Counted from the first letter of the stretch, positions 23,616 through 60,518 are shown. The stretch is DNA of 64,000 nt from an uncultured virus (IMG/VR IMGVR_UViG_3300025280_000025) (IMGVR_UViG_3300025280_000025); one strand, 5' to 3'. The notes: a model not told the origin generated them from the sequence alone. A program made the numbers and translations.

Positions 23616-23953
23616 GAGTTAAGTTCCTTCATAGCTTTGTCGAATTCTTCTTGGGTTATTTCACCTATAGCTAGATCATACCGCAAGCCCCACTCTTTAT
23701 GGGGTATACTAACAGGTCTTTGCTTGTCGCCTTTGCCAGCACTCTTTTCATTCCAAGCAGTAGGTGTCCAGTTACTACCGTCCTGATTGTAACCATCACC
23801 TTTCCCATCTCGTTTTCTTCTTAATAAATTCTTTGGATTGTGCGGATCATTTTTTAGTTTACGAACCTCTCCGTCTTCACCATCACCTTTTTTCTTCCAG
23901 CCATCTGGATCTCCACCTTCAACATAGCTCCCTTGTTTCTTTTTCTTTGGCAT
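23612..23953 (-). CDS. Hypothetical basic protein (AGKGDKQRP motif)
   Basis: RBS GAGGAG; ATGA-type overlap with RNAP. Confidence 0.6.
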   Translation of the reverse strand: MPKKKKQGSYVEGGDPDGWKKKGDGEDGEVRKLKNDPHNPKNLLRRKRDGKGDGYNQDGSNWTPTAWNEKSAGKGDKQRPVSIPHKEWGLRYDLAIGEITQEEFDKAMKELNS

Positions 23954-24051
23954 TAATAATCTCCTCTGCAGTATTGGATTATAAATAGAATTATAATAAC
24001 TATTGCTAAGCTTATTCTCATAGGCATTCTGTCTTTTTCTGGATCAGTCAT
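23953..24051 (-). CDS. 32-aa TM peptide (not in track)
   Basis: MTDPEKDRMPMRISLAIVIIILFIIQYCRGDY; TAATG-coupled to the next gene. Confidence 0.45.
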   Translation of the reverse strand: MTDPEKDRMPMRISLAIVIIILFIIQYCRGDY

Positions 24052-24078
24052 GGATCATTCATGGATCATTCCTTATTA

Positions 24079-24626
24079 TATGGGCTTCAAGAGCCTGCCT
24101 TATGCTATCATCGGACGTACCTAAGCACTTAGGCGGTTGAGGCTCCCTGAGTATAGTCTCTTTCGGGAACTATACCACACCCATAGATTTAAGTAGCCCA
24201 GAGCAGGTGTGCTTTATATTTTATCCTGCTTTACTAGTCGCACCGTAGTGCTACTTAGATTGTTATCACTCTCCGTTTACTAGTGTACGCAAGGGACGGA
24301 GTTAACAGAATTCTCATTAGCTTTATGGGTTTATTTCCTCAAGCCAGTACACCTGTACCCTCTGATAGTGATATTAAATTGTCGGGGCAAGTAAGAACGT
24401 GGGCGGGTACCTCTCCGCTTTGTCTCCTGTCACCCTGCCTTTCGGCACTCGGCGAACTTACTTAACCCCATTAGATTGTCGGTAGGTTACGCCTACCAGT
24501 CGAGTATTTTAGACCCTATACTAATGGGTTTCGAGTTTTACAACTTCACAGGTTGTTGTATAGTAGAGATGCCTTGGCTACGAGTAGCCCAAATCTCTTG
24601 AACCCGTTGAGGCCGTGGTCCTATAC
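24079..24626 (-). ncRNA. Tandem array of ~8 compact structured RNA modules (array 1)
   Basis: No credible ORF. Back-to-back closed stems, GAAA/GUAA tetraloops on the minus strand, and four modules repeated in array 2 with compensatory changes. Confidence 0.7.
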
Positions 24627-25610
24627 TAACGAGAGTGCATGACGCATAACACGGGTAGAATTCTTGGCTGCTTCACCGATCAGCTTGTTGCTGATAGTAG
24701 CCTCGGTTGTACGACGCTTACGGTTTTGTAGCCAGTTCGTTACCGCATTAGCTGCGATCCATGCACTGTTACCAAACTCCTCTTGTTCTCTATCAAATGT
24801 TTCAGACCATCCATTAAGTATAGCCATAGCTTTCTTACGAGAGTTATGCTCTTCTTCAGTATAGGATGATCGTTGCGAAGGTATCTCACCTTCAAACATT
24901 GTGTAACAGTCACGCCAGAAGTTTGTTATCTCTTCTCTGTCCCATTTCTTAAGACCTAGTGTACACACTGCTGCTCGGAACTTAGCCTTGTGGTTCTTCC
25001 ATTCATCCAGTGCTTCTTTAAGTCCTAAGATCTTATCTTCCATGTCACCTTTGTGACGTAGTTTAATCATACGCTGTGATCCTTCACTAATAGCCCAGCT
25101 CAATGTGTTGTTACATACAACCCTGACTGAGGTAGGTAGTGCAGATAAACTTAGCGTACCATTGTGACTGTTCATTAAGCAGAGATACTCATGCATCTCA
25201 TCGTTGCCATTCACAGCCCACTCACTGTCCTTCATAAGGACATATGACTGTGCTCCATTGAACAGTGTGCCTGCTGTCTCGACCTGTAATCCAGGTACTG
25301 AGCCAGCAATGTCAAACAGTTCGCTGTTCTGTACAATCTTATAGTTCTTATTGACTACACCTAATACTTCTTCAGTATCAGTACGTACAGTAGCATGGAA
25401 TTTACTAGGCAATGTATAAAGCTTACCATAATAATCATCATTGGCATAATCAGCTACTAAAGGTTCAGACAGTACCACATTAAAGCCCATCTTAGCAAGT
25501 TGCATTGCTTCGTAGGGTGTTGGTGCATTCTCAACGACTGTTCCCAGTCCGTGCCATGCAGGCTTACCAACGTATACGGCATGGTCTTGTTCGTACATTT
25601 CATGTGACAT
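24621..25610 (-). CDS. DUF932-family (phage/plasmid-like) protein
   Basis: PAWHGLG, YKIVQN.ELF and NSHNG...TSVRVVCNNTL...HKG motifs. Confidence 0.9.
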   Translation of the reverse strand: MSHEMYEQDHAVYVGKPAWHGLGTVVENAPTPYEAMQLAKMGFNVVLSEPLVADYANDDYYGKLYTLPSKFHATVRTDTEEVLGVVNKNYKIVQNSELFDIAGSVPGLQVETAGTLFNGAQSYVLMKDSEWAVNGNDEMHEYLCLMNSHNGTLSLSALPTSVRVVCNNTLSWAISEGSQRMIKLRHKGDMEDKILGLKEALDEWKNHKAKFRAAVCTLGLKKWDREEITNFWRDCYTMFEGEIPSQRSSYTEEEHNSRKKAMAILNGWSETFDREQEEFGNSAWIAANAVTNWLQNRKRRTTEATISNKLIGEAAKNSTRVMRHALSLV

Positions 25611-25618
25611 AAGTTCTC

Positions 25619-27712
25619 CTATTCATCACTGTACTTTTCCCAATCGACATCATCCCAACGTTTGAGATCGTCTTTTATTGCCTGTCTCTTGGGTTTCTTT
25701 TTCTTTTTTTTAGGACGATCAGGTTCGGGCTTGTGCTTCTCGTACCTTATCTTCCGCTTTTTTGAGCTCATATTCCTCCATGCCTAAATAGAATTCAACG
25801 ACATCACCAGCTGGAACCCAGCCAGAATCCTCACGATAGACGAAACCATCATCTGTGAAGTCGAGAATCATTCCTAGTTTACGCATTTGTTCTAAACAAT
25901 TATCAGATATTTCTATCTTCATATCTGTCTCCTTAGCAAACAGCTGTATACAAGGCAGCTTTGCCTAGTATAACTATAAGTCTGTTCCAATACAGCATCC
26001 TCATATTTGAGTCACTCCATATTTAACATCCCAATATTTATTTTCTTTATTCCAATTACATTCCATCATTTCAGCCATGTAATCACATTCATAATCAAAA
26101 TCATCAGAATCATAGCCAGTTAAAGTGCCAACAATCCTAGTATAAATTGCTTGATCGACATCATCTGTGTATTGTACCATAATTGTATCGTCTGTCAAGA
26201 CCAATTGTGAATAATTATCATTATATTTTCCATCGCCGTATTCATAGTACCCTATCCCAGCACTTTCTACAGTATAGTCTAAGGTTTCTTTTATTAACAC
26301 ACGAATATCTTCTTCAGATACATAGTTTACTTCATTCATCTTTTATCTCCTTGAGACTAGCTTCTAGTTCTTCCATACTAAAGTTTAGTCTAGTATTAAA
26401 GTTATTTTCAGCTCTATTGAAAGCACCAGCTACTATATGTTCGAGGTCTTTCTCGAAGCCTATCATAGCATCAGAAATTAGGCTATCTATGTGCAGTTCA
26501 GCCCATGTCTTTAGCCTGTCTTCTATAACATCCCATATTCTATCTTGTTCTATATGAAGATCACAGATTATATGTCTGTCGCTCATTTCTTATACTCCTT
26601 TACAGTATAGATTATTCCATCACTCTTTTTACGTAGGCTATTAAAGTCATTGGCATCCTTAACGGCCTCTGATTTCTTATAGTATACAGCAGGCTTCCAG
26701 TCACCGTCGACTATCCAGCCACTATCCTTTACTCTAATGCCCCATTTCTTTACTCCTCGCATGGTACCTCCTTGGTATATGTATCCATACACTCGTCATC
26801 ACAGCCGTTACACCATACATACTCATTAAAAGAACCATCAGCATAGTCATCGCCTGTTATAGTATCATCGTGTAGTTTTTCCAAGGGTATCATTGCATCA
26901 TAGCCTTGCCATAGATCTGTACTATGACACTCACTACAGTGTTCAGTTATCTTTTTCATTCTTATACTCCTTGTGTTGCAAAGTATACTACAATGGCAGT
27001 ACTTACAATCACCTGTATTGTTATTAATACTATGGCAATGCGATTCATTCTTCGTTGCTTGGCTTGTAGTTCTTTATATTTCTGATTCATTCTTCCTCCT
27101 CAAGTGCATCTTCAAAGTAGGAATGATACTTCTTAATCAAGTCATCAACCCAATCCACATCACCACAGCCATGTTGTCCACCACATGCGTGATAGAACTG
27201 ACCACAGACATCCTTCCAATCGGGATCATCCCAATCAATCGCTTGCTTTGGCATCGTATTCATCCTCATCTATAAAGTCTATTCGTTCAGTGTTACAATC
27301 ATCACACCAATTATATTCCCAAGGGTAGTCAAGACCGCCCCTCACAGGCACATCATAGTCGTGACCATGAGTGTTGTTAGGATCATACATTGCTATGTGA
27401 CCCTCAGTTATATTAGTTCCCCCGCATTCGCTACATACCATTGTCACGGTTAGCCTCCTCACGCTCATCTATTTCATTTTCTTCACGAGATTCCATATGC
27501 TTAGTCATCCACTCATCATACTCAACACGCTCGACATCCCAGTCTCGCAGCTCCCCATCCTGTGTCTCCCAGTTATCCCACTCACCCACATAAGGATCTT
27601 TATCAAATATTGCACGGGCTTCTTCCTCTGACTCCGCCTCGACATAGCACTCACATGTTTCCCATGTGGTACTGGTTGTATTGATATCTATCCTATAGTA
27701 TTTCTTAGTCAT
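25619..27712 (-). other. Cluster of ~11 small acidic early genes, including two paralogous Zn-ribbon proteins (26750-26959, 27235-27468)
   Basis: Tightly packed minus-strand ORFs with AGGAG RBS; CSEC...WCxxC in two of them. Confidence 0.7.
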
Positions 27713-27737
27713 ATTGTTCTCCTGTGTTGGGTTAGTA

Positions 27738-28281
27738 ATTTCTTGTGCGGAGAGCCTTCCCTTTCTTAGGGATTCAACTATTTTAGGCTCTTACTCCGCT
27801 ATCAAGAAATAGATTGTGGAGGAGTAGTAGAGATCGGGGTGCTTTATATTTTATCCCGCTTTGGTCGACATGCACCATACTACTACTCCCCCTCTAGAAA
27901 ACCCCCACTAATATTTCTATTAGTGAGGGCGTGTGTAGTAGAGATGCCAAGATTATCTCTATTAACCCGTCTAGCCGTGGTTCTACACAATGGTATTTTA
28001 GACCCTATACCAATGGGTTCGCAGTTTTGGTACACACATGCTCAGGTGAGTAGTGTCTCGTTATCACACTTGTGAACCGCACACAACACGGGTTGATGGT
28101 TGCTGTTGGTGTTAACTTTATTTAAGGGGACCCTTCACCAAATTCAACCAATTAGTAGATACCCTCCAGTCCGAACTATGTAAGACCGAATTACAGTTCA
28201 AGCCCAGCCTAAAGGCACATGACTTTCCGGAAGGTACCTACTAAATGGGGCTCCCGTCATCGGGAAGAATCGGGGAGCCCT
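27738..28281 (-). ncRNA. Tandem array of structured RNA modules (array 2) spanning the segment A/B junction
   Basis: Homologs of four array-1 modules in a different order, plus further multi-stem elements at 27738-27810, 28091-28149 and 28152-28243. Confidence 0.7.
27896..27929 (-). terminator. Intrinsic terminator inside array 2
   Basis: CCCUCACUAAUA-GAAA-UAUUAGUGGGGG-UUUUCU. Confidence 0.65.
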
Positions 28282-28302
28282 AAGAGTGGGGGTGCTGAAT
28301 TA

Positions 28303-28827
28303 TTAACCCCCTAGTAGGGTCATGAGGTATTCACTCTTGTAAGTGGTAGTGCCACGTTCAGTATAATTGCATCGAATCATACATGCAACAGTAGAGTCGC
28401 CATTTAGTTTGGTTTCTACCTCATCGAATGCCGAACCTAGATCAGTTGGCTCATAACCAAGGATGGTTTTGAGGTGACCCTTCAATCTACTGAGTTCGAT
28501 ACGTGCCCGTATTTGTGATCCTTCATGTGTAAGTAAAGAAGCATCGTGTGGGATGGTCATGGGAGCACCATTCCAAATCAATGGTTCTGTTCGGTCAGGG
28601 TCTTCACAGAGTTGATAGTGAAATTGAACAGATACTGCAGGGAATTCTTGTTTGTCATCTGTTTGACGGAAGGTTCCATTTTGTACATTCATTCCGAGAA
28701 CATAACAAGCGTGTTCACCTTTGGGGGGCCATTCTCCTAATGAACCCATCCCTTGGTCTGCGGTTGCGGTTTCGAAATCCGATTGCAAGTTTGAGAAGAT
28801 TGCCTTCGTCTCATTACTAATGCTCAT
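28303..28827 (-). CDS. Putative SSB (DUF669-like OB fold)
   Basis: WPPKGEH pattern; lies downstream of an AAA ATPase and exonuclease. Confidence 0.55.
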   Translation of the reverse strand: MSISNETKAIFSNLQSDFETATADQGMGSLGEWPPKGEHACYVLGMNVQNGTFRQTDDKQEFPAVSVQFHYQLCEDPDRTEPLIWNGAPMTIPHDASLLTHEGSQIRARIELSRLKGHLKTILGYEPTDLGSAFDEVETKLNGDSTVACMIRCNYTERGTTTYKSEYLMTLLGG

Positions 28828-28830
28828 AAG

Positions 28831-29727
28831 TTAATCCTTCTTGTTTTGAGCCGATATGTACTGTCCTTCGAATGAAGACCACGCATCTTCTTGTGGAAGT
28901 TCAATACGATCTGGTAAGTCTACACGACATTTGGTGATTCCCGCAAGGGTCTCATCATTAATTGTCATATAATATTTTTGTGTTCTAATAGTTTCTGTTT
29001 TCTTGGGTCCTGGTTTACCACCAATTCCGGGGAGTTGTATTTGTTTTGATTCTGATATCCAATCGGATTCGAATGCTGCAACGAGTTCAAACATTGGGAA
29101 CAGTCTTTTATAGAACGAGTCGGTTATTGTAAGTTCGGGTCTGATTGTGTATCGGTCATCACCTAGTGGAATCTTTGCATTTACTAGGTGACATACATAG
29201 AAGAATCCGTAGCCGTGTCTGCGGAGATCTAACGAGAATCGGAGTAGTCCATCATAGACATCATCCCATGCTCTTCGACCATCAAGATCTTTCCAGTTCT
29301 CTCGACCTGCCTTCTTGGTTACATAATCTTTCATCAATTGAATTGAAGGACCAAGACTATCAAGTACGATTGTTTGTGGTCTTGCTTGTCCAGCTTCTGA
29401 CATTTTGATAAGTTGTTCTTTCTTCTTGAGAATTTCTTCCCAAGTAAGAACCATCTTTGACCCACCAACATCCATTGGCTCACCATTTTTAGTAACTCCA
29501 GGCCACATACATGCTTGCGGATTCGGATTGGTTGTACTGGTTCCATCTGTGTTAATGATGAATGCATTAGGGTTTGATTGTAAGAAGAATGATTTACCTG
29601 CTCCGGGCATTCCTACTATTAATCCTAGTAGTTGTCCAGGCGGATGAACCATTCGTTGTCCTGAAAAACCTAAGCCAGAATACTTCTGTGCTCCTGTTTT
29701 TCCTACCGCTAAGTCCTGTGTTTGCAT
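28831..29727 (-). CDS. AAA_24 / Sak4-like ATPase (recombination)
   Basis: GMPGAGKS Walker A, TIVLDS Walker B and VCH motif. Confidence 0.75.
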   Translation of the reverse strand: MQTQDLAVGKTGAQKYSGLGFSGQRMVHPPGQLLGLIVGMPGAGKSFFLQSNPNAFIINTDGTSTTNPNPQACMWPGVTKNGEPMDVGGSKMVLTWEEILKKKEQLIKMSEAGQARPQTIVLDSLGPSIQLMKDYVTKKAGRENWKDLDGRRAWDDVYDGLLRFSLDLRRHGYGFFYVCHLVNAKIPLGDDRYTIRPELTITDSFYKRLFPMFELVAAFESDWISESKQIQLPGIGGKPGPKKTETIRTQKYYMTINDETLAGITKCRVDLPDRIELPQEDAWSSFEGQYISAQNKKD

Positions 29728-29735
29728 ACTACCTC

Positions 29736-30125
29736 CTAATCTGTGTCGGTTTCATTATCGAAAATTATTTCATCTAAATCTGCGTTTGTTGGTGTATAGT
29801 TAGCCACCTCCATACTTCTGAGTCCTCCTTCTTTTAAGAATACATCTGTTGTAGTTGAGACTGGTCTTCTATCGGGCAAACTCCATACTGTTGTTTGCTG
29901 CGGTCTCAAGTTTAAGTCGTCACACCACTCCTTGAATTCTCTAAACGATACGGTGCAATCATGCTTATCTCTAAACAATTTCCAGAGTTCACTTACCGAA
30001 AGATCACCCTTCTCTGAATAGAGAAGTCCTTCCAGTTTAGGTAAAACTACTGTAGTAAGTATTTCATTCTTAAATTTTAATAGTGGGTTACTTGCCATAA
30101 ATGACTCCTTGCGTGCGGAGTGCAC
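29736..30125 (-). CDS. Hypothetical protein
   Basis: In operon; likely start MASNP. Confidence 0.5.
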   Translation of the reverse strand: MHSARKESFMASNPLLKFKNEILTTVVLPKLEGLLYSEKGDLSVSELWKLFRDKHDCTVSFREFKEWCDDLNLRPQQTTVWSLPDRRPVSTTTDVFLKEGGLRSMEVANYTPTNADLDEIIFDNETDTD

Positions 30126-30135
30126 CGCCTTCGCA

Positions 30136-31419
30136 TTACGAGGCGGTGCACGGAGCGTCTACTATAAACTCTACACCTTCATCCCTATCTACTTGTATGA
30201 AGGATTCTGCTTTAATTATATCAGGCCATTCCTTTGGTGGTGTCAAGTAGAAGGGTGTGTAGGGCGACATTCTACCAAATTGTCTAAGGTGTGACGCAGA
30301 TCTTGGGAAATTTTTAGGGAATGCTTTACATTGAACATAATTACGAATTAGGTTTACTCTTGCATAGTACTCATCAAGGAAATCCTCATCGGATAAAAGA
30401 GTTCCATAAGTCAAACTATAATTTATAGGAGGAGACATTACCCACTTCTCAGCGAGGTGTTCATATTCCTTTTGTCCCCGGTACCAATCATTACACCTTT
30501 CTATATAGTTATCGAAGCGAGGTTCACCAGAGTAGTTTCTACGTATCTCAACTTGTCCCTTACGAGGACCACGTTGTAACGTGTGTTCTACCTCTTCGAA
30601 GTCTCGATCTTTCATACCGAATTCTATAGTAGGTTTCTGGACTGCTATATGAATCATACCCCCCACTCTTACATCTTCTGGTAAACCATGGATCGGCTGC
30701 AATAGATTATTATCTAGAGCCAGCTTTAGTATCATCATGTAGTGTTGAGTTTGAAATTCTAATGGGCACGTTATAAGACGTTCTTCAGCAGATCCTGCAG
30801 TTGTCTTAGCGTCTACAATATAAAGAGAGTTTTGTTCTTCATGGTATAAAAGAGTATCCAACACAGCAGTAAGCATTACTTTACCTGTCTTGTGTATCTT
30901 AGGCATGTGTAGTCTTATACCTACTTCAGATCCTAAATGTCTAAAGTGACTTTGTTTTAAGAATTGATTTATAGTGGGTATCTTATTCTGGGGAAGTTCT
31001 AAGTTCATAGCAACTTCATACCATGCTGATGCACATGTAAAGTCCTTCTTTTCCCTTTCCAATACTTTGTCCTTAGATTCCCCTTTGATTCCTAATGTTT
31101 GGCATATTTCTTTAAGTTCGTCTAATCGGTCATCCAGCAAAGTATTCATACAAGTTTTTGAAATTTCGAGTGGTTCTCTATAAAGTTCAAGTTTCTTATG
31201 AAACCATGAACCACGAGAAAGTGCTTTCGACCAACGAAGAACAGGTACAATTCCAAGTCTCCGGGACAAATAGTATTGAAAGGGACAATGTAATACCCCC
31301 TCATAATCTGAAGATCGAATGGAGGGAGTCGTATCCACGTAACCGTGATACTCCATCCACCTTTGGGCATCTTGCCCGCGCCCTGTAGGTACAGCAACGC
31401 TTTCTATTTCTGGGGGCAT
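30136..31419 (-). CDS. PD-(D/E)XK (RecB/Cas4-like) exonuclease
   Basis: CPFQYY, GSWFH and E...LD...IVDAKT...Q..Y motifs. Confidence 0.8.
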   Translation of the reverse strand: MPPEIESVAVPTGRGQDAQRWMEYHGYVDTTPSIRSSDYEGVLHCPFQYYLSRRLGIVPVLRWSKALSRGSWFHKKLELYREPLEISKTCMNTLLDDRLDELKEICQTLGIKGESKDKVLEREKKDFTCASAWYEVAMNLELPQNKIPTINQFLKQSHFRHLGSEVGIRLHMPKIHKTGKVMLTAVLDTLLYHEEQNSLYIVDAKTTAGSAEERLITCPLEFQTQHYMMILKLALDNNLLQPIHGLPEDVRVGGMIHIAVQKPTIEFGMKDRDFEEVEHTLQRGPRKGQVEIRRNYSGEPRFDNYIERCNDWYRGQKEYEHLAEKWVMSPPINYSLTYGTLLSDEDFLDEYYARVNLIRNYVQCKAFPKNFPRSASHLRQFGRMSPYTPFYLTPPKEWPDIIKAESFIQVDRDEGVEFIVDAPCTAS

Positions 31420-31441
31420 AACTTTCCTCCTGTGTTAGAGT

Positions 31442-31561
31442 TTATCTATTCTTTTGGGGAAGTTCATACCAGTCAAGATAATGACCCGCAAGTATGAGCC
31501 ATCCGACGGCTCCTACTAAGGTTCCTCCAAAGAATATATTTCCTAAGGTATCTGCTAACAT
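31442..31561 (-). CDS. 39-aa single-TM peptide (not in track)
   Basis: MLADTLGNIFFGGTLVGAVGWLILAGHYLDWYELPQKNR; RBS AAGGA. Confidence 0.65.
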   Translation of the reverse strand: MLADTLGNIFFGGTLVGAVGWLILAGHYLDWYELPQKNR

Positions 31562-31570
31562 AATGTTTCC

Positions 31571-31741
31571 TTATACGCTTGCGATAAGATTCCAAAGTTC
31601 ACGACATGCACCTGCTACCCAGTTAACACCTTCCCATGCGAAGGGAAGAAGTGCTAAGGTAATAAGTAAACTACGATTGATACCAACCTTATTAAGGGTT
31701 GAATCGACGATATCACTTGCACAACAATTATCTTTACTCAT
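31571..31741 (-). CDS. 56-aa membrane peptide (not in track)
   Basis: MSKDNCCASDIVDSTLNKVGINRSLLITLALLPFAWEGVNWVAGACRELWNLIASV; ATGA overlap. Confidence 0.65.
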   Translation of the reverse strand: MSKDNCCASDIVDSTLNKVGINRSLLITLALLPFAWEGVNWVAGACRELWNLIASV

Positions 31742-32127
31742 TTGGTTATTTCCTTTTTGAGTTTAACTATACGGGCTTGGCCCAGTGCCTTGATAGCCCA
31801 CAACGTACTAAATACTCCTGATGCTACGATGATCGGGAGTGCTATGAGATGAAAATACTCTTGTAACAAAGTATTAATAAAGATTAACCCTATCCCACCA
31901 AGAACAGGGTACCAACCTTTACGACCCGCTGAAACACAGAGTAAAACGATTCCCCCGAGAATTGAAATCCCCCCAATACTCGAGAGCATTGAGAGGGTAG
32001 GAATGGAGGATGATACTGCCTCTGTAACGGTTGCTATTCCACCCGTACTTGGCTTTGTAGAGAAGAGAGTATCTACGGCACATCCTCCAAGAGAAAAGGA
32101 GATTAGTAATGGGATTAGTTTCTTCAT
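31738..32127 (-). CDS. Lipoprotein-signal protein with ~3 TM helices
   Basis: SLGGC lipobox. Homolog of 18774-19175. Confidence 0.7.
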   Translation of the reverse strand: MKKLIPLLISFSLGGCAVDTLFSTKPSTGGIATVTEAVSSSIPTLSMLSSIGGISILGGIVLLCVSAGRKGWYPVLGGIGLIFINTLLQEYFHLIALPIIVASGVFSTLWAIKALGQARIVKLKKEITK

Positions 32128-32357
32128 ACGAATTTGAGTAAAAGAGTAAGGATACCAGAGAAGAACATGGCTGTCACCCCTGATATCATATACATCTTAG
32201 TCTTTAACTCAGTAATAGATCTATCGATATTGGATAATCGTTTGTCCAATAGATCAAGACGGTTATTGGCGCGATCCAACTCATTAACTACGAGTCGTTT
32301 GTATTCAGCCCAACCGTTCGTTCCTCCTTGGTTTGTTTCCCAAGGTTCGTTTACCAA
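32124..32357 (-). CDS. Coiled-coil + C-terminal TM protein
   Basis: PWET...GTNGW..YKRLV.NEL.R shared with 2830-3066. Confidence 0.65.
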   Translation of the reverse strand: MVNEPWETNQGGTNGWAEYKRLVVNELDRANNRLDLLDKRLSNIDRSITELKTKMYMISGVTAMFFSGILTLLLKFV

Positions 32358-32360
32358 TGT

Positions 32361-32489
32361 TTATCTTCCACCAGTACTAGCACGTTTAATTTTACTTCGT
32401 GATTTTCTACCAATAGTCCGTTTAGCACCCGCTGTACTTTTGGTTCTTTGTGGTACTACTTTCGATTTTTTACCTTTTTTCTTTGGCAT
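32361..32489 (-). CDS. 42-aa protamine-like basic peptide (not in track)
   Basis: MPKKKGKKSKVVPQRTKSTAGAKRTIGRKSRSKIKRASTGGR. Confidence 0.65.
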   Translation of the reverse strand: MPKKKGKKSKVVPQRTKSTAGAKRTIGRKSRSKIKRASTGGR

Positions 32490-32509
32490 GATTTATTTCT
32501 TACCTTTCT

Positions 32510-32620
32510 TTATATAGTTCTTCGTCTCTTTTTGGGTTTTCGTTTTCTAGTTTTACCAGCGGTTCTTTTTTGAGCACCACCTGTACTCTTTTTCTTATCT
32601 TTTTTATATGCGTATGCCAT
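32510..32620 (-). CDS. 36-aa protamine-like basic peptide (not in track)
   Basis: MAYAYKKDKKKSTGGAQKRTAGKTRKRKPKKRRRTI; TAATG-coupled. Confidence 0.65.
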   Translation of the reverse strand: MAYAYKKDKKKSTGGAQKRTAGKTRKRKPKKRRRTI

Positions 32621-33264
32621 TAACCTACAAACCTTCCTAATATAAGACCTTCTGATACAGAATCAAAATCTTTAACACCTACACAGATACTTTTACAACC
32701 TGCTAAATATACTGAGGTTCTATGACCCATAAACCATGGGCCGGCTCCTGCCCAATGAAAGTTTTCTGTTAGATCCATTTGAAGACTGATTACTCCTGCT
32801 TGGTCAGTATCAAGTGTTGGCGCAGCTTTAGCCATCCACACCGCTTCTAGATTTTGAAGAGGAATCCACATATCAGTAGGATCCCCATAACTGCCGGAGT
32901 TTACATCGTGTGGCCATTTACGATCTGCGCCTGTAAGACCATCTTTAACAGGTACTTTACCCCACACACCAATCCTTACAGTATGGTCAGCTGCAGTGTC
33001 TGAAGTTAGAAAGAGTTCAAGACTTAGACCTGCAGAAGGTACAATAATTTCTTGTGAGTTTGTACCTAAAGTTGTAACGGTATTACTATAAGCTGCTACA
33101 AGTTCTTGTGGTTGATTCCATACTGCAGTAGCACCTGTACCATCATCATCTATTACGTTATCATGGACTACGAATATGTTTGAACCCCATGATGCTGCGG
33201 GTGCTCCGATGGCAGGTGCATCAAATATAAATGTATTATTGAATTTTGTGGTGGGTGTAGCCAT
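32620..33264 (-). CDS. Hypothetical beta-rich protein, possibly a virion component
   Basis: T/A/G-rich composition; RBS GGAG. Confidence 0.5.
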   Translation of the reverse strand: MATPTTKFNNTFIFDAPAIGAPAASWGSNIFVVHDNVIDDDGTGATAVWNQPQELVAAYSNTVTTLGTNSQEIIVPSAGLSLELFLTSDTAADHTVRIGVWGKVPVKDGLTGADRKWPHDVNSGSYGDPTDMWIPLQNLEAVWMAKAAPTLDTDQAGVISLQMDLTENFHWAGAGPWFMGHRTSVYLAGCKSICVGVKDFDSVSEGLILGRFVG

Positions 33265-33769
33265 TTGTTATTGCTCCAGTTATGAGAAGGCGTGCTACCC
33301 AATTAGCACATGCTCTTCTATGACTATAGGTTGTTCCGGGTAGTAGTATCATTTCTATTGAATATTCTCTTAACAGTCTTAATAATCCATCGACAGCAGC
33401 AGCAGGGTGAGGCACATTCTTGCAAGGTTTTTCCATTAAGAGTGGGGTGCCTTCCAACATTAATACAGGATGGGTACAAGCATTCCTTAACTTTTGAAGG
33501 GATTTTATGAATCTTATACGATCCTTTTCATTAAGACAATTCTTGGCAATCTCACGTAGACTGCCTTTGCGTTCAATTATAGTGCTACTTTCATGTCCTT
33601 GCAATAGATAGTCTCCCGCATCTAATTTATCCTTTATGGTGTGTAACCGTACAGTAATTAGACGTTGTTTAGTAGGAGAAAAAGAATCATCTAAAACCTT
33701 CAAATTTGCTGGAAATTTGAGGGGTTTTTTCTCCCTAGTATCTTGGATTATTGTCCACTCTTTTTTCAA
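33236..33769 (-). CDS. ERCC4/XPF-domain nuclease
   Basis: DTREKKP, GDY and IERK motifs. Confidence 0.85.
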   Translation of the reverse strand: MKKEWTIIQDTREKKPLKFPANLKVLDDSFSPTKQRLITVRLHTIKDKLDAGDYLLQGHESSTIIERKGSLREIAKNCLNEKDRIRFIKSLQKLRNACTHPVLMLEGTPLLMEKPCKNVPHPAAAVDGLLRLLREYSIEMILLPGTTYSHRRACANWVARLLITGAITNGYTHHKIQ

Positions 33770-34041
33770 TCTTGACCTCTACCATATTTTAAAACAATAT
33801 CTTCTATGTTTTTTTGTGCTTGAGAGAAGATTCTCCCTATATCTCTATAAGAGAATCCTGAATTATGAAGCCGAAGTATTCTTTTTTCTTTTGGACCCCC
33901 ACTTTTAATAGGTGCATTATAAGGTAAATTGTGCTTTTTGGCTATGTGATATAAAGATTTGGATTCCATCTCTAGTTCATTAGCTACTTCTTTTATACTA
34001 TAACCTGCACTCAAAAGGCTCTTTACTTTTTCTTCATTCAT
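33766..34041 (-). CDS. Tandem helix-turn-helix protein
   Basis: GYSIKEVANEL and GFSYRDIGRIF. Confidence 0.7.
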   Translation of the reverse strand: MNEEKVKSLLSAGYSIKEVANELEMESKSLYHIAKKHNLPYNAPIKSGGPKEKRILRLHNSGFSYRDIGRIFSQAQKNIEDIVLKYGRGQD

Positions 34042-36140
34042 GACCAGTCATACTCCAAGGGTATTTCGTTTCCATAATATTCAGAGATCATACTCCAATA
34101 TCCTTCATCTTGTACAAAAGATACGGCTTCTTTTACTAATTCAGTAAGTTCTTCTGCAGCATCCTTATTAGCAACGTCGAAGTAGATTGCATCATAGATG
34201 TTTAAGAACATATGCATGTTAGATTTAGGAGAATTTAAACTAGGCATTGATTTATGGAGATAACTTTGAATGCTTATCAATATATTACTTGCTGTTGTTT
34301 GAACAGGGAAATTTACGATCTCATTTACTTCATATTTGTCTCCTCCAAGGAAATACCTTGATTGTCCTGTAAAGGGTAATTCTATTCTTCCATGGAGACG
34401 AGCAGTAAATATTAAGTCTTTTTGAAAAGCATATAGTTTGGGTCTATGTTTTCTACGACTTTTAACAATAACTTCACATAACCCCATATCTAGTTCTATA
34501 CCTGACATTGCAAGTACTTGTTTATGGATAACATCAGAACCTGCACGGAATAAGTCTGCAAAGTTAACCATCTTACCTATTTGTCTTTGTTTATTAGTAC
34601 ATGTAGTACCACCAAAGATTTGTAGAGTTCTTTCTGTATGTAAATCTCTACCTTTTTGATAGGCATCTATAAATGCATTATCACCTGATAGTAGACCTGC
34701 TACACGCAACTCTATCTGTGATAAGTCCATAGACATTATGTAACCTTCTCTAAACCTACTGGTTATACATTCTTTAATCATAGGAGGAAAGGTCTGTGCA
34801 GATGGCTTCTTACAGGTAATGCGACCTTGTAAGGTACCCCCACTACCACCTTCATTATTCTTAGCATAGGTGGGAGTAGCATACCATGTGGGATATGCTA
34901 TATGATGTCCGTTGATTGGTATAAGCCGAGCAGCTTCATCAGTAGATTTATTTCTTCTATGTCTTAATAATGGGTATGTATAACTACTTATTACCTTTTG
35001 AGCACCTGCATGTCTCTTTGCTCCATCAAATACTCTTATAAGTTCATGGGCTTTATAGTCCCAGGTTGAAAGATTTCCAGTGCTGTTACTAACTTTATCT
35101 TTTAATTCATTTTGTAGTTTATTTCTATTTGCTTCTGTGAAACTTACAAGTCCTTTTGCTGGTGTAAGTTCCATTTCATCTCTTATTTCATTACCTATTA
35201 ACCAAATTGCATCATCCATTAGTTTTTGTTTTGCTGTGCCGCTCCCTTCGCCTTCTAGCGGGTATCCGGCTTCGGTTGCGGCTTCGTTTGCTTCTTTACA
35301 TAACACTAATAGTGTGCTCTCTATCTTTTCTAACTTTTCTTTGTCCATACATATACCTGATTCGGACATTCGGATGATTGTCCATAGTAGGTCGGAGTAA
35401 AAGTGCAAACAAAAGGTTGAAAGTTTATTCGTATTAGGAAAGTCTCGCTCTATTCTTCGAGCGAGTTCCCTAATAGCGAGTACTGTGTTATGTGTATCCT
35501 GTGCGTTGTATTCTTTTAATTTCTTGTCTGCTATAGATCGAAATCTTCCATCTTTAAGAGTGTTTTCATATGTGTGAGTGCGGAGTATTGGACCTAAACT
35601 TTTGAGACTCTTTTCTTGTCGTGTTTCATCGTGAAGATAGTTAATTATTGAGAGGTCTATTAATAGTTGATCTTCTAATGCGAATCTAAATTCTGGGTCT
35701 TTTCTAATGTATTGGATATCAAATGGGAGGTTCATTCCAATAATTACTTTTGAGTGTGTTAACCATTTTTGCAGTCTTATTCGATCAATCGTATCTGAAA
35801 GATTGAATACCATCGTCTTTTTTGGATTTATCTTCTTCAAGTTTGGAAAGGATAACCCCTCCAACTGTGATAACAATACGGGCAAGTTTTCTGATATCGG
35901 GATCTTTGATTTCTCTTGTGGATTCCAAGGCTCCTTCGAGAGCATGTCTTGGGTTTCGCATTGGTCTTCCTTAACTAATGTGATTGAGGCGGTTACTATT
36001 AAATCGCTTAAATCTACGCTATCCGTATGCATAGATCTCGCAGGGTGAAATACGGTCTGTTTAGATAAAAGATTGCCTCTGTATCCTTCCTCAACAGCAC
36101 CATAAGTCTCTATATCGAGACTAATAATTTGAGTGTCCAT
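34038..36140 (-). CDS. Family A DNA polymerase with variant motifs B/C
   Basis: LDIET, NLPFD, YNAQD, GTLQGR, DLSQIELR, KMVNFADLF and IYDAI motifs. Confidence 0.9.
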   Translation of the reverse strand: MDTQIISLDIETYGAVEEGYRGNLLSKQTVFHPARSMHTDSVDLSDLIVTASITLVKEDQCETQDMLSKEPWNPQEKSKIPISENLPVLLSQLEGLSFPNLKKINPKKTMVFNLSDTIDRIRLQKWLTHSKVIIGMNLPFDIQYIRKDPEFRFALEDQLLIDLSIINYLHDETRQEKSLKSLGPILRTHTYENTLKDGRFRSIADKKLKEYNAQDTHNTVLAIRELARRIERDFPNTNKLSTFCLHFYSDLLWTIIRMSESGICMDKEKLEKIESTLLVLCKEANEAATEAGYPLEGEGSGTAKQKLMDDAIWLIGNEIRDEMELTPAKGLVSFTEANRNKLQNELKDKVSNSTGNLSTWDYKAHELIRVFDGAKRHAGAQKVISSYTYPLLRHRRNKSTDEAARLIPINGHHIAYPTWYATPTYAKNNEGGSGGTLQGRITCKKPSAQTFPPMIKECITSRFREGYIMSMDLSQIELRVAGLLSGDNAFIDAYQKGRDLHTERTLQIFGGTTCTNKQRQIGKMVNFADLFRAGSDVIHKQVLAMSGIELDMGLCEVIVKSRRKHRPKLYAFQKDLIFTARLHGRIELPFTGQSRYFLGGDKYEVNEIVNFPVQTTASNILISIQSYLHKSMPSLNSPKSNMHMFLNIYDAIYFDVANKDAAEELTELVKEAVSFVQDEGYWSMISEYYGNEIPLEYDWS

Positions 36141-36424
36141 ATGTTCCTCCTACTCAAGTTTTTCTAGGTCGTTTTCATACTCCATAAATGCTTCGATATT
36201 TGCTACAATGTCAGTTATTTCTTCCATTCTAAGAGTGGGGGGACAAACGATTAATGGTACATCTTCGAATTGATCTATATAATGTTGCATTCTGTTATAG
36301 TCTAATTTTGCTCTTATTATTTGGTCTGTTACTGTTTCAATTATTTCTAACATCTCCTCTTTTTGAAGAAGAAGTTTATCAATTTCTGATAAAAGTACTT
36401 GTACTTCAGGGTGATCTCTTAAAT

Positions 36425-37180
36425 TCATTGAGGTGATCTTGTAGATATAATTTCGGGTGCCGAAGGAGATGCCATTGTTCCGTCTACACAATCGGATACG
36501 AGTTGCATGTGGGAGTGTACACTATTTATGAGATTGTTATTACGGAGTACGGCTGCGGGGTGATATGTACTGAACATATTGAATTCCCCCACTCTATCTA
36601 GTTTATGGTCTTTTGGTGTATAAAGGTTTCCGTTTATTGTAAAAGATTTGGTTAGGGACACCTTCGTTATACCAAGTATATTCTTGTAAAAGGATGTAGT
36701 TGCTGGTGCTCCAAGTGTTAGGACGATATTGGGTTTAATGATTTGTAGATCTTCGATTAGGTGTTGGTTGCATTCTCGGTAATGTTTAGGTTTGGGTGCT
36801 TGATTGTTTGTTGTGTGACATTTTACTCCATTACCAAGGTAGATTGTTGCTCGTTCTTGGAGCTCTATACCTCCTATGAATGACTTCTTAAGGATATCTC
36901 CACTTCTACCCACGAATGGTTCGTTGATCCTGTCCTCGTGGTATCCGGGGTTTTGACCTATGATGAGAATAGTAGGAACACAGGAGATAGAGTGGGGTGT
37001 TTGTGCCACTGATTCTTTGTAGGGGATTGTTCGGATACCTATATTTGTTGCTTGCTCGTGGAGTTCACAACGAGTACAGGTTGGTTTATCCTCGGGGTAT
37101 AGGAGGATAGAAATCGTTGATGTTTTCTTGGTAGTCTTGTTCGTTTTGAATAGATCCGTCTGTTGGTGGTTCGCATTCAC
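36425..37180 (-). CDS. Family 4 uracil-DNA glycosylase-like protein
   Basis: CTRCEL, IGQNPG..ED...PFVGRSG, N.VKC and TYHPAAVLR motifs. Confidence 0.88.
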   Translation of the reverse strand: MNANHQQTDLFKTNKTTKKTSTISILLYPEDKPTCTRCELHEQATNIGIRTIPYKESVAQTPHSISCVPTILIIGQNPGYHEDRINEPFVGRSGDILKKSFIGGIELQERATIYLGNGVKCHTTNNQAPKPKHYRECNQHLIEDLQIIKPNIVLTLGAPATTSFYKNILGITKVSLTKSFTINGNLYTPKDHKLDRVGEFNMFSTYHPAAVLRNNNLINSVHSHMQLVSDCVDGTMASPSAPEIISTRSPQ

Positions 37181-38496
37181 AATGAGCCTCCGCTATATTT
37201 TCTACTGACACACCAAGTACATTTTCAACAGTTTCATTTACAAATTTAGTGTGATAACCGCCTTGAAAGGCCATTACTTCTTTACCAATAACTACAGTAA
37301 TTTCATACGCTACTACATCTGTTACAGTGCTATGTTTGTAGTCCCACACTATATCTATAGTGCCTTTTACTTCCATATCATAACTTTTACCATCTTCTTC
37401 AATAAAAGTACCATACTTAAATTTTGATGTTTGTGGATTACTCATTATATGCCTTCTTTCCAGTCTTTAATCTTTTGTAGTACATCATACAATTCTTCGT
37501 CTCTTTCTTTTGCCATCTCACGAAGTTTATTTTCATTTGGTAGACCACCAAATTGGTTTGGATAATCTTGAAAATACTCTCTTAGTTCATTAAGAAGTTT
37601 TACTTCCTGTACTATTACTTGTATATCTTCAGTCGTTATCTCGGGTGGGTTTGACTTGGGCATTTTTCACTCCTTCTTTGTATTCTCTTGTGTCTGCGTC
37701 AGTCCAACTTGAGGATTGACATCCTACTTCATGACATGCTGATTCCATACCACCACAGTCGGGACATCGTTCATCTAGATCGTCCCATGCTTCAACTAAT
37801 TTATTTATTTCACTGTTTTGCCGAAAGGTTTCAGACATGATGACTTTTCCTTTACTTTCTTATTATAGTTCTCATGACATTCTATTATTTGATCTGCTAA
37901 TGAATCCATTTGTAGTTCTATAAGAGCTACACGAATAGAATCTACATCCTCACCTTTAAGTTGTTCTTCTCGTCTTTCAAGAACAAGAATAGTTAATTTA
38001 ATAGTGAGTGCTGCAGCCTTATCCAATTCTTCTTGCATTGTATTCTCCTGTGTTAAAGGTTTGTTAAAGGTTAAAGTAGTTCGCGCAGATGATTCTGCAT
38101 ACGTAATTGTCTTACATATCTATCAAATTTTGCTTCTTCCCATGTGTTTATTCGAATTCTTAAACCTAGATGGTCTTTAAGATCGCTCAAAGTAAATCTG
38201 ATGGGGACCTCTCCCTCTTTAGTATCTAAGAATAAAAATCCAATTTCAGAATCAAATAGAGATTCAAGTCGATAATACCATTCCATAATGTTGGAAGGTT
38301 TTAGTTTTGAGAGGTGTACATGTTCAGAAGCTACTGCTAGTGCTTCTGTCACAGGTGATAATCTGTAATAGATGTCTTCAGATTCTAACCAATTATCTTC
38401 TTCGATAGGAGGATCTTTGGTATACTGCCAACATACTTCATCGTTGTTTTTAATATGAGAAATATCGATGTCACGAGATTCAAATTCGAAATGCAT
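37086..38496 (-). other. Run of five small hypothetical genes
   Basis: Coupled minus-strand ORFs with RBS. Confidence 0.55.
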
Positions 38497-38525
38497 ACTT
38501 TCATTATAGAATCAGGATTAACCTT

Positions 38526-38696
38526 GTGAATAGTGATAAACCAAAAATTGAAGGTCTTGGAGACATAATTAAAAGGCTTACCAATGCTGTTGGCGTTAAA
38601 ACCTGCTCTAAATGTGAGGAACGAAGAAAAAAAATGAACGAAATGTTCCCCATAAAAAAAGGCCAGCCTCATCCAAAGGACAAGACTGACCGTTAA
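38526..38696 (+). CDS. 56-aa GLGD...CxxC...R...N..FP protein (not in track), lone plus-strand gene
   Basis: GTG start; MNSDKPKIEGLGDIIKRLTNAVGVKTCSKCEERRKKMNEMFPIKK. Confidence 0.7.
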   Translation: MNSDKPKIEGLGDIIKRLTNAVGVKTCSKCEERRKKMNEMFPIKKGQPHPKDKTDR

Positions 38697-38740
38697 TGGG
38701 CTTTATATTTAAGACCTCTTGCCCATAAGTAGTGAGGTCT
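38696..38740 (-). ncRNA. H-type pseudoknot module with UAAAUAUAAAGC linker
   Basis: AGACCUC/GAGGUCU and AUGGGC/GCCCAU pairings. Confidence 0.6.
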
Positions 38741-38950
38741 AGAATAGGAAAGGTAACCTTCTTTCTCTACCCTTCAAGATCAGATAATGGAGCAATCTGA
38801 TCCTCTTTAATTTGATTATTCAAAATATGTATCTCTTCTGTAAGTTCTTGATGTATAAGAGAATATTCATGTCTCCACTTATTAATTTCTTTATTTATCA
38901 TTGTTACGTGTTTTGTTTTATCGTTTATAAATATTTGGATATTATTTAAT

Positions 38951-39715
38951 TCAGACAAGAGATGGGACGTTGTTTTGATTTGACTCCGGATTTTTGAATT
39001 CATCTATATACCTCCTTAGTTTAGTTGTTTTACTTGCTAAGGAGAATTGATTGGCATTTCTCCAATGGGACGTGTATGCATTGAACAAAGAACATCCATT
39101 TCGATCTTTAAATATATCGTGTTCTGGATTATCCCAATGTTCAAGTACTTTAGGAGCATGTTGCCAAGGTAAGATATCTTTTTGACATGATTGAACAATG
39201 AAGTCATGAACTTCTCTTTGGGAGGTAAAATCGTATTCTTTAAGTTGTTCAATCTCTGCAAAAGATTTTTCTCTAAGATCCTTCATATCAAAAGCAAGAT
39301 CTCTTAGATCTCTATGTATATCATTTTCAGCACCTTCTGTATGTCTTCTATTTATTTCAATATGACCTGTAAAGTAACCATTCAGGCAAGCCATGAAATC
39401 CCCACCAGTTATAACCTTTGCAGCCATAGAACTATCATTACTATTAATAATACCAAGCTTAAATCGGTACTCATTAGTTGCAAAACCATCATCATCAGGG
39501 TGAGTAACATAAAATGTAGCCATGAACTTTAGTCCATCTTGATTAGTCATAAATTTATGGTTTTCAGTTTCATAACCTAATATATCTAATGAGTTAAGTG
39601 TTTTATCAAATAAGTGTTTATGTGCTAGAGGCACAAATCTCTTTCTTGCTGGGGGGAGAGGTAAACTCTCTAATTCTTCGTATTCTACTAATTTATTGCA
39701 TCCGTGCCTTTTCAT
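38951..39715 (-). CDS. DUF932-family protein
   Basis: LGIINSNDSS...G...ACLNG...RRHT motifs. Confidence 0.8.
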   Translation of the reverse strand: MKRHGCNKLVEYEELESLPLPPARKRFVPLAHKHLFDKTLNSLDILGYETENHKFMTNQDGLKFMATFYVTHPDDDGFATNEYRFKLGIINSNDSSMAAKVITGGDFMACLNGYFTGHIEINRRHTEGAENDIHRDLRDLAFDMKDLREKSFAEIEQLKEYDFTSQREVHDFIVQSCQKDILPWQHAPKVLEHWDNPEHDIFKDRNGCSLFNAYTSHWRNANQFSLASKTTKLRRYIDEFKNPESNQNNVPSLV

Positions 39716-41244
39716 TCGGGTTCTCCTTCTGTTTCTGTAACGAGTTGTAAGAAAGTATCTTGTAAAGGTTCTTTACCATCTACTTCATGAAATGATTTAT
39801 ATATTGTTGTATTAAATTCTTTACCTATAGCACAAACACTTTTTCCTATATGAACTATAAAGTCTAAACCTATAATGGGATCTTCTACTAATTCCCCTGT
39901 TATTAAATTTGTTTGATCGAAACAATGAGATATATCTTTTAGTTCTTCTAAAAGTTTAGAGTCTACTATGTCTATATTTTCTTCATCATTTTGAACTAAT
40001 TTAGCTGCTTCCATTAATTTAGCATCAAGGAAATGAAGTGCTGTATTAATTATTAACATATCTTGATCTGAACCTTTAAATTTCATGCTTAGCCTCTTCT
40101 GCTGAGATTTCAGCCTTACGTTCCATATTGTCGTCCATTGGAATTGCGTATACTTTTCCAATTAGTGATACTAACATACTTCTTAATGAATCCGTTTGAG
40201 TTCCTGATGAACCCATTGCCTCTAACTTATCTAAAGCACTTAATGCAGCACATAAGTTTTTGAATATATATGCAATGCTCTCTTTAGATACACATATATC
40301 ATTTAAACAACAATCTATTTCTACATCAAATACTCTTGGATCATATTCATCATTTGTCATAACTTATTTCCTTTCATAGTTCATTACGCCATTTTCTAAA
40401 CGGAACCTTTGGAAAAACATATCCAACCCCACTCGAATATAGTTTGTCAAAACATTGTAACCATTTCTTTTCCCACTCTACAAGTGGTTCTTGATGGCTA
40501 GCACTGTTACATCTATCATTCAAATGCCAAGGTTGTCGTCTTGCTAAGTCACTTTCTAGAGTGGGGGTATGTATGCCCTCTGAAATCTCATTAGCAAGAT
40601 CTTTATGTCCTTTATCTTCAAGTAGACCCACTAATGAATCTAATTGAGAATCACTAACAGGTGATCCTTGTAGCATTTCCCAAATTAAAGTCTTATCTAG
40701 ACCTTCGTCTAACATTTCTTCTACTAGCTCGCAAAGTGCTTGAACATCTTCGTCGTGTTCCATGTGATTCCTCCCATCTTTGTACATCTTCTGGCTTCTT
40801 TGTTTCAGTTACTGGTGCACGGTGATGGGCCACTCTAATACTTACTCTCATATTTCTTTCTTCCCATCTAATCACTGTTCTAACTACTATGCTCCAACCA
40901 GAGGTATTATTTGATCCTTTACGATCAATTATAACTCCGGGAATTACTTCTTTTAGAGCCCAATCTTCTTCTACCGTATCAACATCATGATCACGATAGA
41001 AACATTGAATCTTCTTTTCATCCTCTATGTATCCTGCTTTAACCCATTTCCAATGATCTTTACGCCTATCTGCATTTGGATTCATATCTATTTCTCTACG
41101 AAACTCTGAGTCCATTTGCATAGGCACGTTTGCTAGTTGCATACTGTCTACTTGTGAGACAGCACTCCATTTGCCATTCATCCTTGAATTCCTTATAAAA
41201 CTTACCATCCTTAAAAAATAAAATACACGACCCCGCGTATTCAC
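39712..41244 (-). other. Run of hypothetical early genes
   Basis: Coupled minus-strand ORFs. Confidence 0.5.

Positions 41245-59885: not shown

Positions 59886-60518
<633 letters not shown>

Follow-up and report, generated by a model that had tools for sequence, protein, structure and literature searches.

Predicted pseudoknot RNA cassettes strung on a short conserved linker in the early region of an uncultured marine T7-like phage

Two of the described systems closest to the arrangement reported here come from phages T7 and T4. The early mRNA of phage T7 carries intercistronic RNase III hairpins, each a single long hairpin with an internal loop, while phage T4 encodes species 1 and 2, small stable RNAs that are co-processed within the phage tRNA gene cluster. 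We analysed a 64,000-nucleotide (nt) stretch of DNA from an uncultured virus (IMG/VR IMGVR_UViG_3300025280_000025), called the window throughout, in which two conserved non-coding regions of a kind 400-940 nt long consist of stem-closed RNA cassettes in chains, with the 8-mer ACAAUCUA between one and the next. Each of these regions holds one copy of an element, module B, for which an earlier note, made from the sequence alone, had proposed a pseudoknot. The best overall explanation, to which we would give a probability of roughly 45%, is that copies 1 and 2 of module B represent a new family of stem-closed pseudoknot RNA cassettes, processed or stabilising in nature, carried in linker arrays.

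Module B is a cassette of about 65 nt in which a closing stem (P1) encloses an H-type pseudoknot of two interleaved helices (S1 and S2). The 18-mer from which the note set out, GTGCTTTATATTTTATCC on the plus strand and GGAUAAAAUAUAAAGCAC on the minus strand, was found again at 24209-24226 and 27839-27856; with up to three mismatches allowed there are 2 matches against 0.12 expected, and at least 2 were reached in 1 of 100 shuffles. Exact copies of the 11-mer AAAUAUAAAGC number three in the window, all on the minus strand and all outside minus-strand open reading frames (ORFs) of at least 60 amino acids (aa), where about 0.07 would be expected per 64-kb strand; with one mismatch allowed, the 5 matches against 2.5 expected are not significant (11 of 100 shuffles reach 5). 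The GUGC/GCAC helices that had been assigned to the minus strand are both present. So are the two closing stems, AAGUAGC/GCUACUU in copy 1 and GGAGUAGUAG/CUACUACUCC in copy 2, but the description of these as unrelated does not stand, since they are variants of one conserved stem. The components, as read from the sequence, are these:

24190..24257, minus strand: module B copy 1, with P1 at 24257-24250 / 24197-24190
24243-24240 / 24212-24209, minus strand: copy 1 S1, GUGC / GCAC
24229-24225 / 24207-24203, minus strand: copy 1 S2, GCAGG / CCUGC
24224-24213, minus strand: copy 1 A-rich loop
27821..27889, minus strand: module B copy 2, with P1 at 27889-27880 / 27830-27821
27875-27872 / 27842-27839, minus strand: copy 2 S1, GUGC / GCAC
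27858-27855 / 27838-27835, minus strand: copy 2 S2, CGGG / CCCG
27854-27843, minus strand: copy 2 A-rich loop

Relatives were sought in several ways. Exact matches to the 18-mer lay in 10 stretches of viral contigs: 2 chance matches in coding sequence, 4 stretches near-identical to the window and 4 in which the same core sits in other closing stems (GGGGAGUAGUAG/CUACUGCUCCCC and AUUGAUUGA/UCAAUCAAU). The neighbourhoods of relatives of two upstream genes were gathered (12 and 23 loci), and two covariance models (CMs) were built from three sequences, one with P1 and S2 nested and the other with P1 and S1 nested. These score copy 1 at 89.3 and 88.3 bits and copy 2 at 85.9 and 87.9 bits. The family so assembled has 15 distinct members from related marine phage contigs, the divergent ones keeping the architecture and not the sequence. 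Its presence in close relatives is patchy, with a match at E<0.01 in 14 of 37 sources. Model R1 found none in five complete relatives at E 0.01, a result taken as a coarse first look and not as absence, and cmsearch placed members in two of the same five (L017 in G003 and L044 in G006). A metagenome scan returned 23 stretches. Those that belong to the family are one new variant, seen in 2 loci, and known members in 4 loci; the remainder are chance matches in coding sequence or long palindromes from another habitat. Neither Rfam nor cultured-phage records nor cellular genomes contain module B, which is restricted to a single clade of uncultured marine phages.

The order of strands is S1-5', a loop of 9-13 nt ending in AA(G), S2-5', an A-rich loop of 8-12 nt starting with (G)AU, S1-3', 0-3 nt (usually 0-2) and S2-3', the whole lying within a P1 that is usually GGAGUAGUAG/CUACUACUCC. 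An alignment-free search for the best interleaved helix pair gave this same topology in 13 of the 15 members, over which the loop lengths hold steady at 9-13, 8-12 and 0-3 nt; its rule set found nothing in the other two, both of which carry the S1 and S2 of copy 1. An unbiased search also recovers the pseudoknot of copy 1, equalled in 4 of 200 shuffles, and the minimum free energy of copy 2 has a z-score of -3.5. Among the 13 tabulated members there are 11 distinct variants of S1, 8 of S2 and 11 of P1, the forms of S1 including GUGC/GCAC, GCUC/GGGC, GUCUC/GGGAC, GCUGG/CCAGC, CCUU/AAGG, GCCU/AGGC and GCCAU/AUGGC. When 5' strands were set against the 3' strands of other members as a control, full pairing was obtained in 8 of 130 combinations for S1 and 2 of 112 for S2.

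Pair counts from the CM alignments, which are upper bounds because the alignments lean to the structure and the sequences are related, agree with this: with P1 and S2 nested, 94.0% of 234 cells are paired against 71.2% after shuffling and both sides have changed in 15 of 15 pairs (slid controls 23.7-58.2%); with P1 and S1 nested, 95.3% are paired against 73.6% and 14 of 14 pairs are double-changed; 0 of 500 shuffles equalled the observed figure in either case; slid controls over both alignments were 24-63% paired; and, helix by helix, all 4 pairs of S1 (93.2% paired) and all 5 of S2 (89.9%) have changed on both sides. A MAFFT alignment was left out of these counts because it is structurally inconsistent. 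The replacement of CAGG/CCUG in copy 1 by CGGG/CCCG in copy 2, already remarked upon in the note, proves to be one among many compensatory changes in the relatives. G.U cells outnumber A.C cells by 13:3 and 16:4 in the two CM alignments, and the gene-sense strand is therefore the folding strand. Module B shows what is generally asked of an H-type pseudoknot, namely interleaved helices with compensatory changes on one strand, and we regard the predicted fold as well supported; the pseudoknotted RNA element proposed on the minus, gene-sense strand is, for copies 1 and 2, borne out by the compensatory changes in their relatives.

A different picture emerges for AAAUAUAAAGC, which had been taken for the conserved core. 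Other loop sequences are found in 9 of the 13 tabulated members, and AAAUAUAAAGC is the loop of one subfamily, made up of window copies 1 and 2, L002, L026, L033 and L037. In this subfamily a 25-nt core is invariant in four P1/L1 backgrounds, bar one A-to-G change (L037), and might serve as a sequence-specific contact surface. Conserved across the family are the sequence of P1, the AA(G) before S2, the (G)AU after S2 and, in most cases, one A separating S1-3' from S2-3', and the variants differ mainly in S1 and the A-rich loop. At 28165-28100 on the minus strand, where relatives have a module B after GGGUAUCUACUA, the window has AUUGGUUGA...UCAACC around another interior containing UUAAAUAAAG; this unit is matched by neither module B CM and may be a decayed or a different cassette.

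The two copies lie on the gene-sense strand in two intergenic regions (IGR1 and IGR2), which belong to the early region and are placed ahead of the RNA polymerase gene. The regions and the linkers of interest are as follows:

23954..24620, minus strand: IGR1, after the DUF932 gene and before the genes for a small basic protein and the RNA polymerase; no minus-strand ORF of at least 60 aa
27713..28302, minus strand: IGR2, after a 174-aa gene; no minus-strand ORF of at least 60 aa; repeat family D20
24472..24479, minus strand: linker ACAAUCUA, first in the IGR1 array, after a covarying CGUAA-loop hairpin at 24497-24481
24375..24382, minus strand: linker variant ACAAUUUA, between two cassettes
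24256..24263, minus strand: linker ACAAUCUA immediately 5' of copy 1; the two bases at its end form part of P1
27810..27817, minus strand: linker ACAAUCUA, 3 nt 3' of copy 2

The non-coding regions of relatives read as arrays of units of about 50-190 nt, each with its own terminal stem, separated by ACAAUCUA or its variants ACAAUUUA and ACAAUAUA. In 9,966 nt of such sequence (17 non-coding regions) there are 35 exact copies of the 8-mer (ACAATCTA), against 6 in the remaining 151,424 nt on the same strand, an enrichment of about 88-fold. Segments running from one linker to the next are closed by at least 5 terminal pairs in the minimum-energy fold in 17 of 27 cases, as against 72 of 270 shuffles, and several of the segments not so closed are two closed units without a linker between them. 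The start of the array is marked in 13 of 17 cases by a covarying CGUAA-loop hairpin directly before the first linker. At both positions the gap between genes is long (at least 300 nt in 15 of 19 loci of relatives) and its content varies from phage to phage.

The pattern of hairpin plus linker was found in 30 stretches of viral contigs, two of them chance matches (L227 and L234); the other 28 lie on contigs tied to the clade by other scans or in which an array is visible on reading. In 185,579 species (cellular) genomes it gave 8 chance matches and no array. Outside the arrays of five complete relatives, the linker falls mostly within open frames. A lone hairpin plus ACAAUCUA is present in non-coding sequence far from the arrays of one complete relative (L245; G005:7028, minus strand), and the hairpin-linker unit therefore occurs singly too. 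One 82-nt cassette at the end of an array (L015:4586-4667) is tRNA-like: it matches the tmRNA model with 51.8 bits (gathering threshold 47; 42.1 in a shorter search) through the acceptor-stem and T-arm ends only, the message part being absent. Rfam matched nothing besides this cassette in seven array loci, and ARAGORN, run on the window and on 13 loci, called neither a tRNA nor a tmRNA; it does not call the L015 cassette.

IGR1 and IGR2 have cassettes in common, in differing order. One common module is a hairpin with loop AGGGUCUAAA after GAACCCAUU (24504-24539 and 27993-28028 in the window); a second is ACCACGGC...ACGGGUU...AGAGAU-hairpin-AUCUCU (about 24618-24555 and 27990-27930, minus strand). 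Both recur in relatives, and they stand in swapped order in the two regions. Contigs of four DNA runs join 24502 to 27992 in all four cases and 28092 back to 24558 in three, with loose ends around the core of copy 2; these joints are most simply co-occurring relatives with other cassette orders, and we draw no conclusion from them. Gain and loss of cassettes at linkers is seen in L217 (510-1680) and L235 (1-1330), which are 98.5-99.3% identical on both sides of a clean 158-nt indel consisting of one 150-nt cassette (GUUACCUUUCC...GAGGUAAC) and one ACAAUCUA linker.

A third site, at 38.7 kb, had been put forward as a circularly permuted form of module B. It comprises:

38696..38740, minus strand: hairpin-type (classical H-type) pseudoknot, between the stop of a small ORF and a terminator-like hairpin
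38740-38734 / 38718-38712, minus strand: its hairpin, AGACCUC / GAGGUCU
38726-38721 / 38701-38696, minus strand: its loop pairing, AUGGGC / GCCCAU
38711-38702, minus strand: its linker, UAAAUAUAAA
38654..38691, minus strand: intrinsic-terminator-like hairpin directly after the third site, with a 14-pair stem at 38691-38661 and TTTTTTT

Here the order is helix-5', S1-5', helix-3', A-rich linker and S1-3', which is formally a circular permutation, and to that extent the suggestion holds; kinship with module B is another matter and is unproven, as is descent from it by permutation. Homology hangs on one shared 11-mer, since no relatives share the architecture: none of the 80 viral contexts of its 15-mer has it (more than 118 chance matches), and the relatives of the gene upstream are identical copies only. 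The fold of 38655-38745 has a z-score of -4.1, whereas the hairpin of the third site alone is unremarkable (z -1.2); the 6-bp pairing of loop and tail is reached by 139 of 5000 shuffles. The hairpin at 38691-38661 has the GC-rich stem-loop and U run of an intrinsic terminator. Positions 38650-38397 of the window are 73.5% identical to the stretch of L236 that comes after a module B of canonical form, a hairpin and a second hairpin resembling a terminator, and the third site therefore stands in the place of the relative's module B. It is probably a functional analogue of module B, a separate pseudoknot before a terminator. The left flank of the third site was also considered as a 150-nt 'GUUACC' cassette and rejected, the likeness ending after about 16 nt.

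The phage itself is T7-like. The minus strand is the direction of the genes from about 46 kb to position 1, and a T7-type single-subunit RNA polymerase lies at 21174-23615 on that strand (Pfam RNA_pol, E 4.9e-84; PHROG 414), followed downstream by genes for a T7-like primase-helicase, a family-A DNA polymerase, an exonuclease, portal, scaffold and capsid. The RNA polymerase shares only about 25% identity with those of cultured T7-group phages, GenBank phages show no DNA match to the window, and the nearest record, G001, is a fragment without the module B motif. Region 23600-28400 is present in marine metagenome DNA runs. A survey of marine Autographiviridae (PMC12361551) describes, in the parts available, an uncultured large-genome group, AG-10.1, in which the gene set upstream of the polymerase is variable; in the same parts the words promoter, intergenic and non-coding are absent for this group. 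We infer that the phage belongs to AG-10 of that survey. No solved relatives were found for the neighbouring DUF932 and 174-aa proteins.

Three further features of the window were observed in passing. Besides the T7-like family-A DNA polymerase of the replication block (14667-16424, minus strand), a second one of 700 aa lies at 34038-36140 on the minus strand in the variable early region. Between 7891 and 10226, 4-5 copies of a 19-62 nt repeat (TACCTACCCCTCTTTCTTT, plus strand) fall at the starts of a series of small minus-strand genes, and are probably the starts of paralogous genes sharing a ribosome-binding region. Collagen-like repeats of 9-nt period (Pfam Collagen) at 60202-61510 on the plus strand belong to a presumed tail-fibre gene.

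How might the arrays work? The chain of cassettes would share a transcript with the early genes. A host or phage endonuclease, and not the RNA itself, would cut it within or next to the single-stranded linkers, leaving compact stem-closed RNAs. In cis these could act as end-caps that stabilise or insulate neighbouring messages, by analogy with the RNase III hairpins of T7; in trans they could be small accessory RNAs. The two uses seem about equally likely. Use in cis fits the position of the third site and of the module B of L236, both just before terminators, while use in trans fits an arms-race locus, given the fast turnover of cassettes and their location in the early region.

Several points tell against a family of processed or stabilising cassettes. 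Because the CM alignments follow the structure by construction and their sequences share ancestry, the shuffle counts overstate significance, and single sequences give modest pseudoknot scores, with 2 to 52 of 200 shuffles doing as well. With 15 distinct sequences, all from one phage clade, the family is small (the metagenome scan added one member), and only 4 of 74 columns are invariant in the MAFFT alignment of 14 members, which is weak support for a conserved function. Among RNA runs none is listed as covering 23600-28400, and no RNA-processing enzyme was recognised among the proteins of the window. Close relatives differ greatly in cassette content, which speaks against a constant housekeeping role in mRNA processing. 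The indel at the linker could equally stem from mobility at the DNA level.

An alternative that we consider unlikely is that IGR1 and IGR2 are integron-like collecting sites for RNA genes, where the phage would acquire, exchange and express small folded RNAs, ACAAUCUA being both recombination point and RNA processing site and the variants of module B serving as decoys or binders of differing specificity against host factors early in infection.

Three other explanations have, in our judgement, only a small chance of being correct. The first is that module B is a riboswitch-like leader sensing a ligand or protein, for the operon of the small basic protein and RNA polymerase or for the genes after IGR2. 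Aptamers commonly take the form of H-type pseudoknots with A-rich loops, module B is part of the 5' untranslated region of the following gene, the last linker variant in relatives abuts the ribosome-binding site, and up to three variants occur within one region (L037). However, module B is rarely the last cassette before the gene (in the window it is followed by other cassettes over 130-250 nt), there is no evident expression platform, invariant nucleotides are few, and both the module B of L236 and the third site precede terminators at operon ends; nor would a leader be expected to be as patchy in close relatives as was found above.

A second explanation, to which we likewise give little credence, places the feature in the DNA: the cassettes would be miniature mobile elements, with terminal inverted repeats and an 8-bp duplicated target, or else the AT-rich core would be a promoter or operator, and the fold would be incidental. 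The inverted ends of every cassette with the same 8-mer flanking them, the clean loss or gain of one cassette plus linker between 99% identical genomes, and the common, reordered cassettes of IGR1 and IGR2 all suit such elements. Yet the internal helices of the pseudoknot covary, which neither a DNA repeat nor a promoter needs; the fold is specific to one strand by the G.U to A.C ratios given above; and members keep the fold and not the sequence. The arrangement is moreover the reverse of that in transposons, with constant flanks and variable inverted ends, and Pfam recognised no transposase or integrase among 65 ORFs scanned. A constant 8-mer flank, variable ends and no transposase do not describe a miniature inverted-repeat transposable element, though the L217/L235 indel fits either reading. 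As for a promoter, the 18-mer falls below the cut-off of a sigma-70 scan (sites need at least 9 of 12 matches). It was rejected as a T7-type or sigma-70 promoter: there are 2 copies only, both inside cassettes, and around them the flanks covary and the fold rather than the sequence is kept. The note had allowed that the AT-rich core might map as a promoter or operator whose flanks do not covary, and the covariation of the flanks speaks against this.

The third, also improbable, takes the linkers as the initiation part of a promoter for the phage's single-subunit RNA polymerase and the cassettes as 5' leaders of nested transcripts. The linker loosely resembles the melting region of T7-group promoters, and with a run of G behind it recalls their start region. 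Such a run follows 1-3 nt after the linker in many cassettes (G at +3 in 31 of 49 and at +4 in 27 of 49), and about 17 conserved nt precede the first linker in 13 of 17 arrays. That conserved upstream element is, however, the covarying hairpin, and most linkers are preceded only by the variable 3' strand of the previous cassette. About 40% of cassettes lack a starting G (2 of 5 in the window start with one), and the 8-mer is concentrated in arrays; neither in the rest of the window nor in five complete relatives is it placed ahead of genes. A better candidate for the phage polymerase promoter, judged by sequence, is CTAGAGTGGGGG, which with up to 3 mismatches on both strands occurs 11 times against 4.2 expected (0 of 100 shuffles as high). 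With conserved upstream bases it is seen at 48792-48806, 49844-49858 and 40553-40567 on the plus strand, at 44345-44359 and 36586-36600 on the minus strand, and at other places.

The weakest alternative is that module B is a new class of self-cleaving ribozyme, cut in or beside ACAAUCUA or in the core, with the 38.7 kb site as its natural circular permutant, and we consider it very unlikely. Clusters of diverse structured RNAs in phage DNA are the genomic habit of known small ribozymes, and the clustering of these cassettes with diverse small structured RNAs, the compact stem-closed pseudoknot, the 25-nt core of one subfamily, invariant in 4 P1/L1 backgrounds, and the formally permuted strand order of the third site all lean this way. 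Against it, the permuted form is a singleton, and the same linker joins all cassette types despite their differing folds, which points to a common trans-acting cutter, if there is any cutting. Rfam 15 gave no hits at gathering in the whole window, and at E up to 10 only noise of microRNA type in 23900-28400 and 38400-39000, where no ribozyme family, pistol included, matched; a ribozyme is therefore unsupported, and the likeness to pistol that the note had seen at 38.7 kb finds no confirmation. Pistol, as set out in excerpts of Harris et al. (2015; PMC4604425), has three stems, P1, P2 and P3; its P1 loop forms a pseudoknot with the P2-P3 junction, 10 of its nucleotides are highly conserved, and its cleavage junction is strictly 2 nt long. 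On that outline the third site resembles it as a short hairpin in phage DNA with a loop that base-pairs to sequence 3' of an A-rich linker, and differs in missing P2 and P3: it is one hairpin followed by a terminator, with no P2/P3 frame around it and only A/U runs for P2 strands. Copies 1 and 2, a closing stem with two interleaved helices, differ from pistol in their strand order and in having that stem. The 4 columns invariant in the family, set beside the 10 highly conserved nucleotides given in those excerpts for pistol, appear few for a common catalytic core.

Structured RNAs of phages are poorly charted, and module B adds a small pseudoknot family with unusually clear covariation. Motif searches of the literature gave no paper with module B or the linker, and a topic search brought up general work on the discovery of ribozymes and structured RNAs but none on such a family or array; the array context is new and goes beyond what the earlier note observed. 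We found no description of an architecture in which heterogeneous stem-closed cassettes are strung on one 8-mer and turn over between near-identical genomes; the T7-like group that carries it, in its early region, is marine, uncultured and found worldwide. Should the cassettes be excised and work in trans, phages would have in them a new means of encoding accessory functions as RNA; should they work in cis, they would extend the paradigm of intercistronic processing in T7. Either way they are defined, short and testable RNAs, and a tempting but unsupported ribozyme call has been removed.

Like the RNase III hairpins of T7, the arrays place structured elements between early genes, one such position being right before the gene for the RNA polymerase, and they share with those hairpins, by analogy, a presumed role in cutting polycistronic RNA and leaving protective end stems; they differ in being chains of up to 6-7 heterogeneous cassettes, some pseudoknotted, with conserved single-stranded 8-mer joints. 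Phage tRNA clusters are likewise strings of small, independently folded, stem-closed RNAs, though the transcript here is a predicted one, and one array cassette is tRNA-like; here, however, the spacers are a conserved 8-mer and the cassettes are not tRNAs by ARAGORN. With integron arrays and miniature inverted-repeat elements there are in common units with inverted ends, one short conserved junction and gain or loss by whole units, but these units are RNA folds of 50-190 nt and not genes, no integrase or transposase was recognised, and internal helices covary in a strand-specific manner. The SAM-II/SAM-V and preQ1-II aptamers resemble module B in their two interleaved short helices, A-rich loop and marine setting; module B differs in having no Rfam hit and no evident expression platform and in being enclosed in a conserved stem of 10-12 bp. 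It is also a non-classical H-type pseudoknot, with a long loop between S2-5' and S1-3' and only 0-3 nt between S1-3' and S2-3'.

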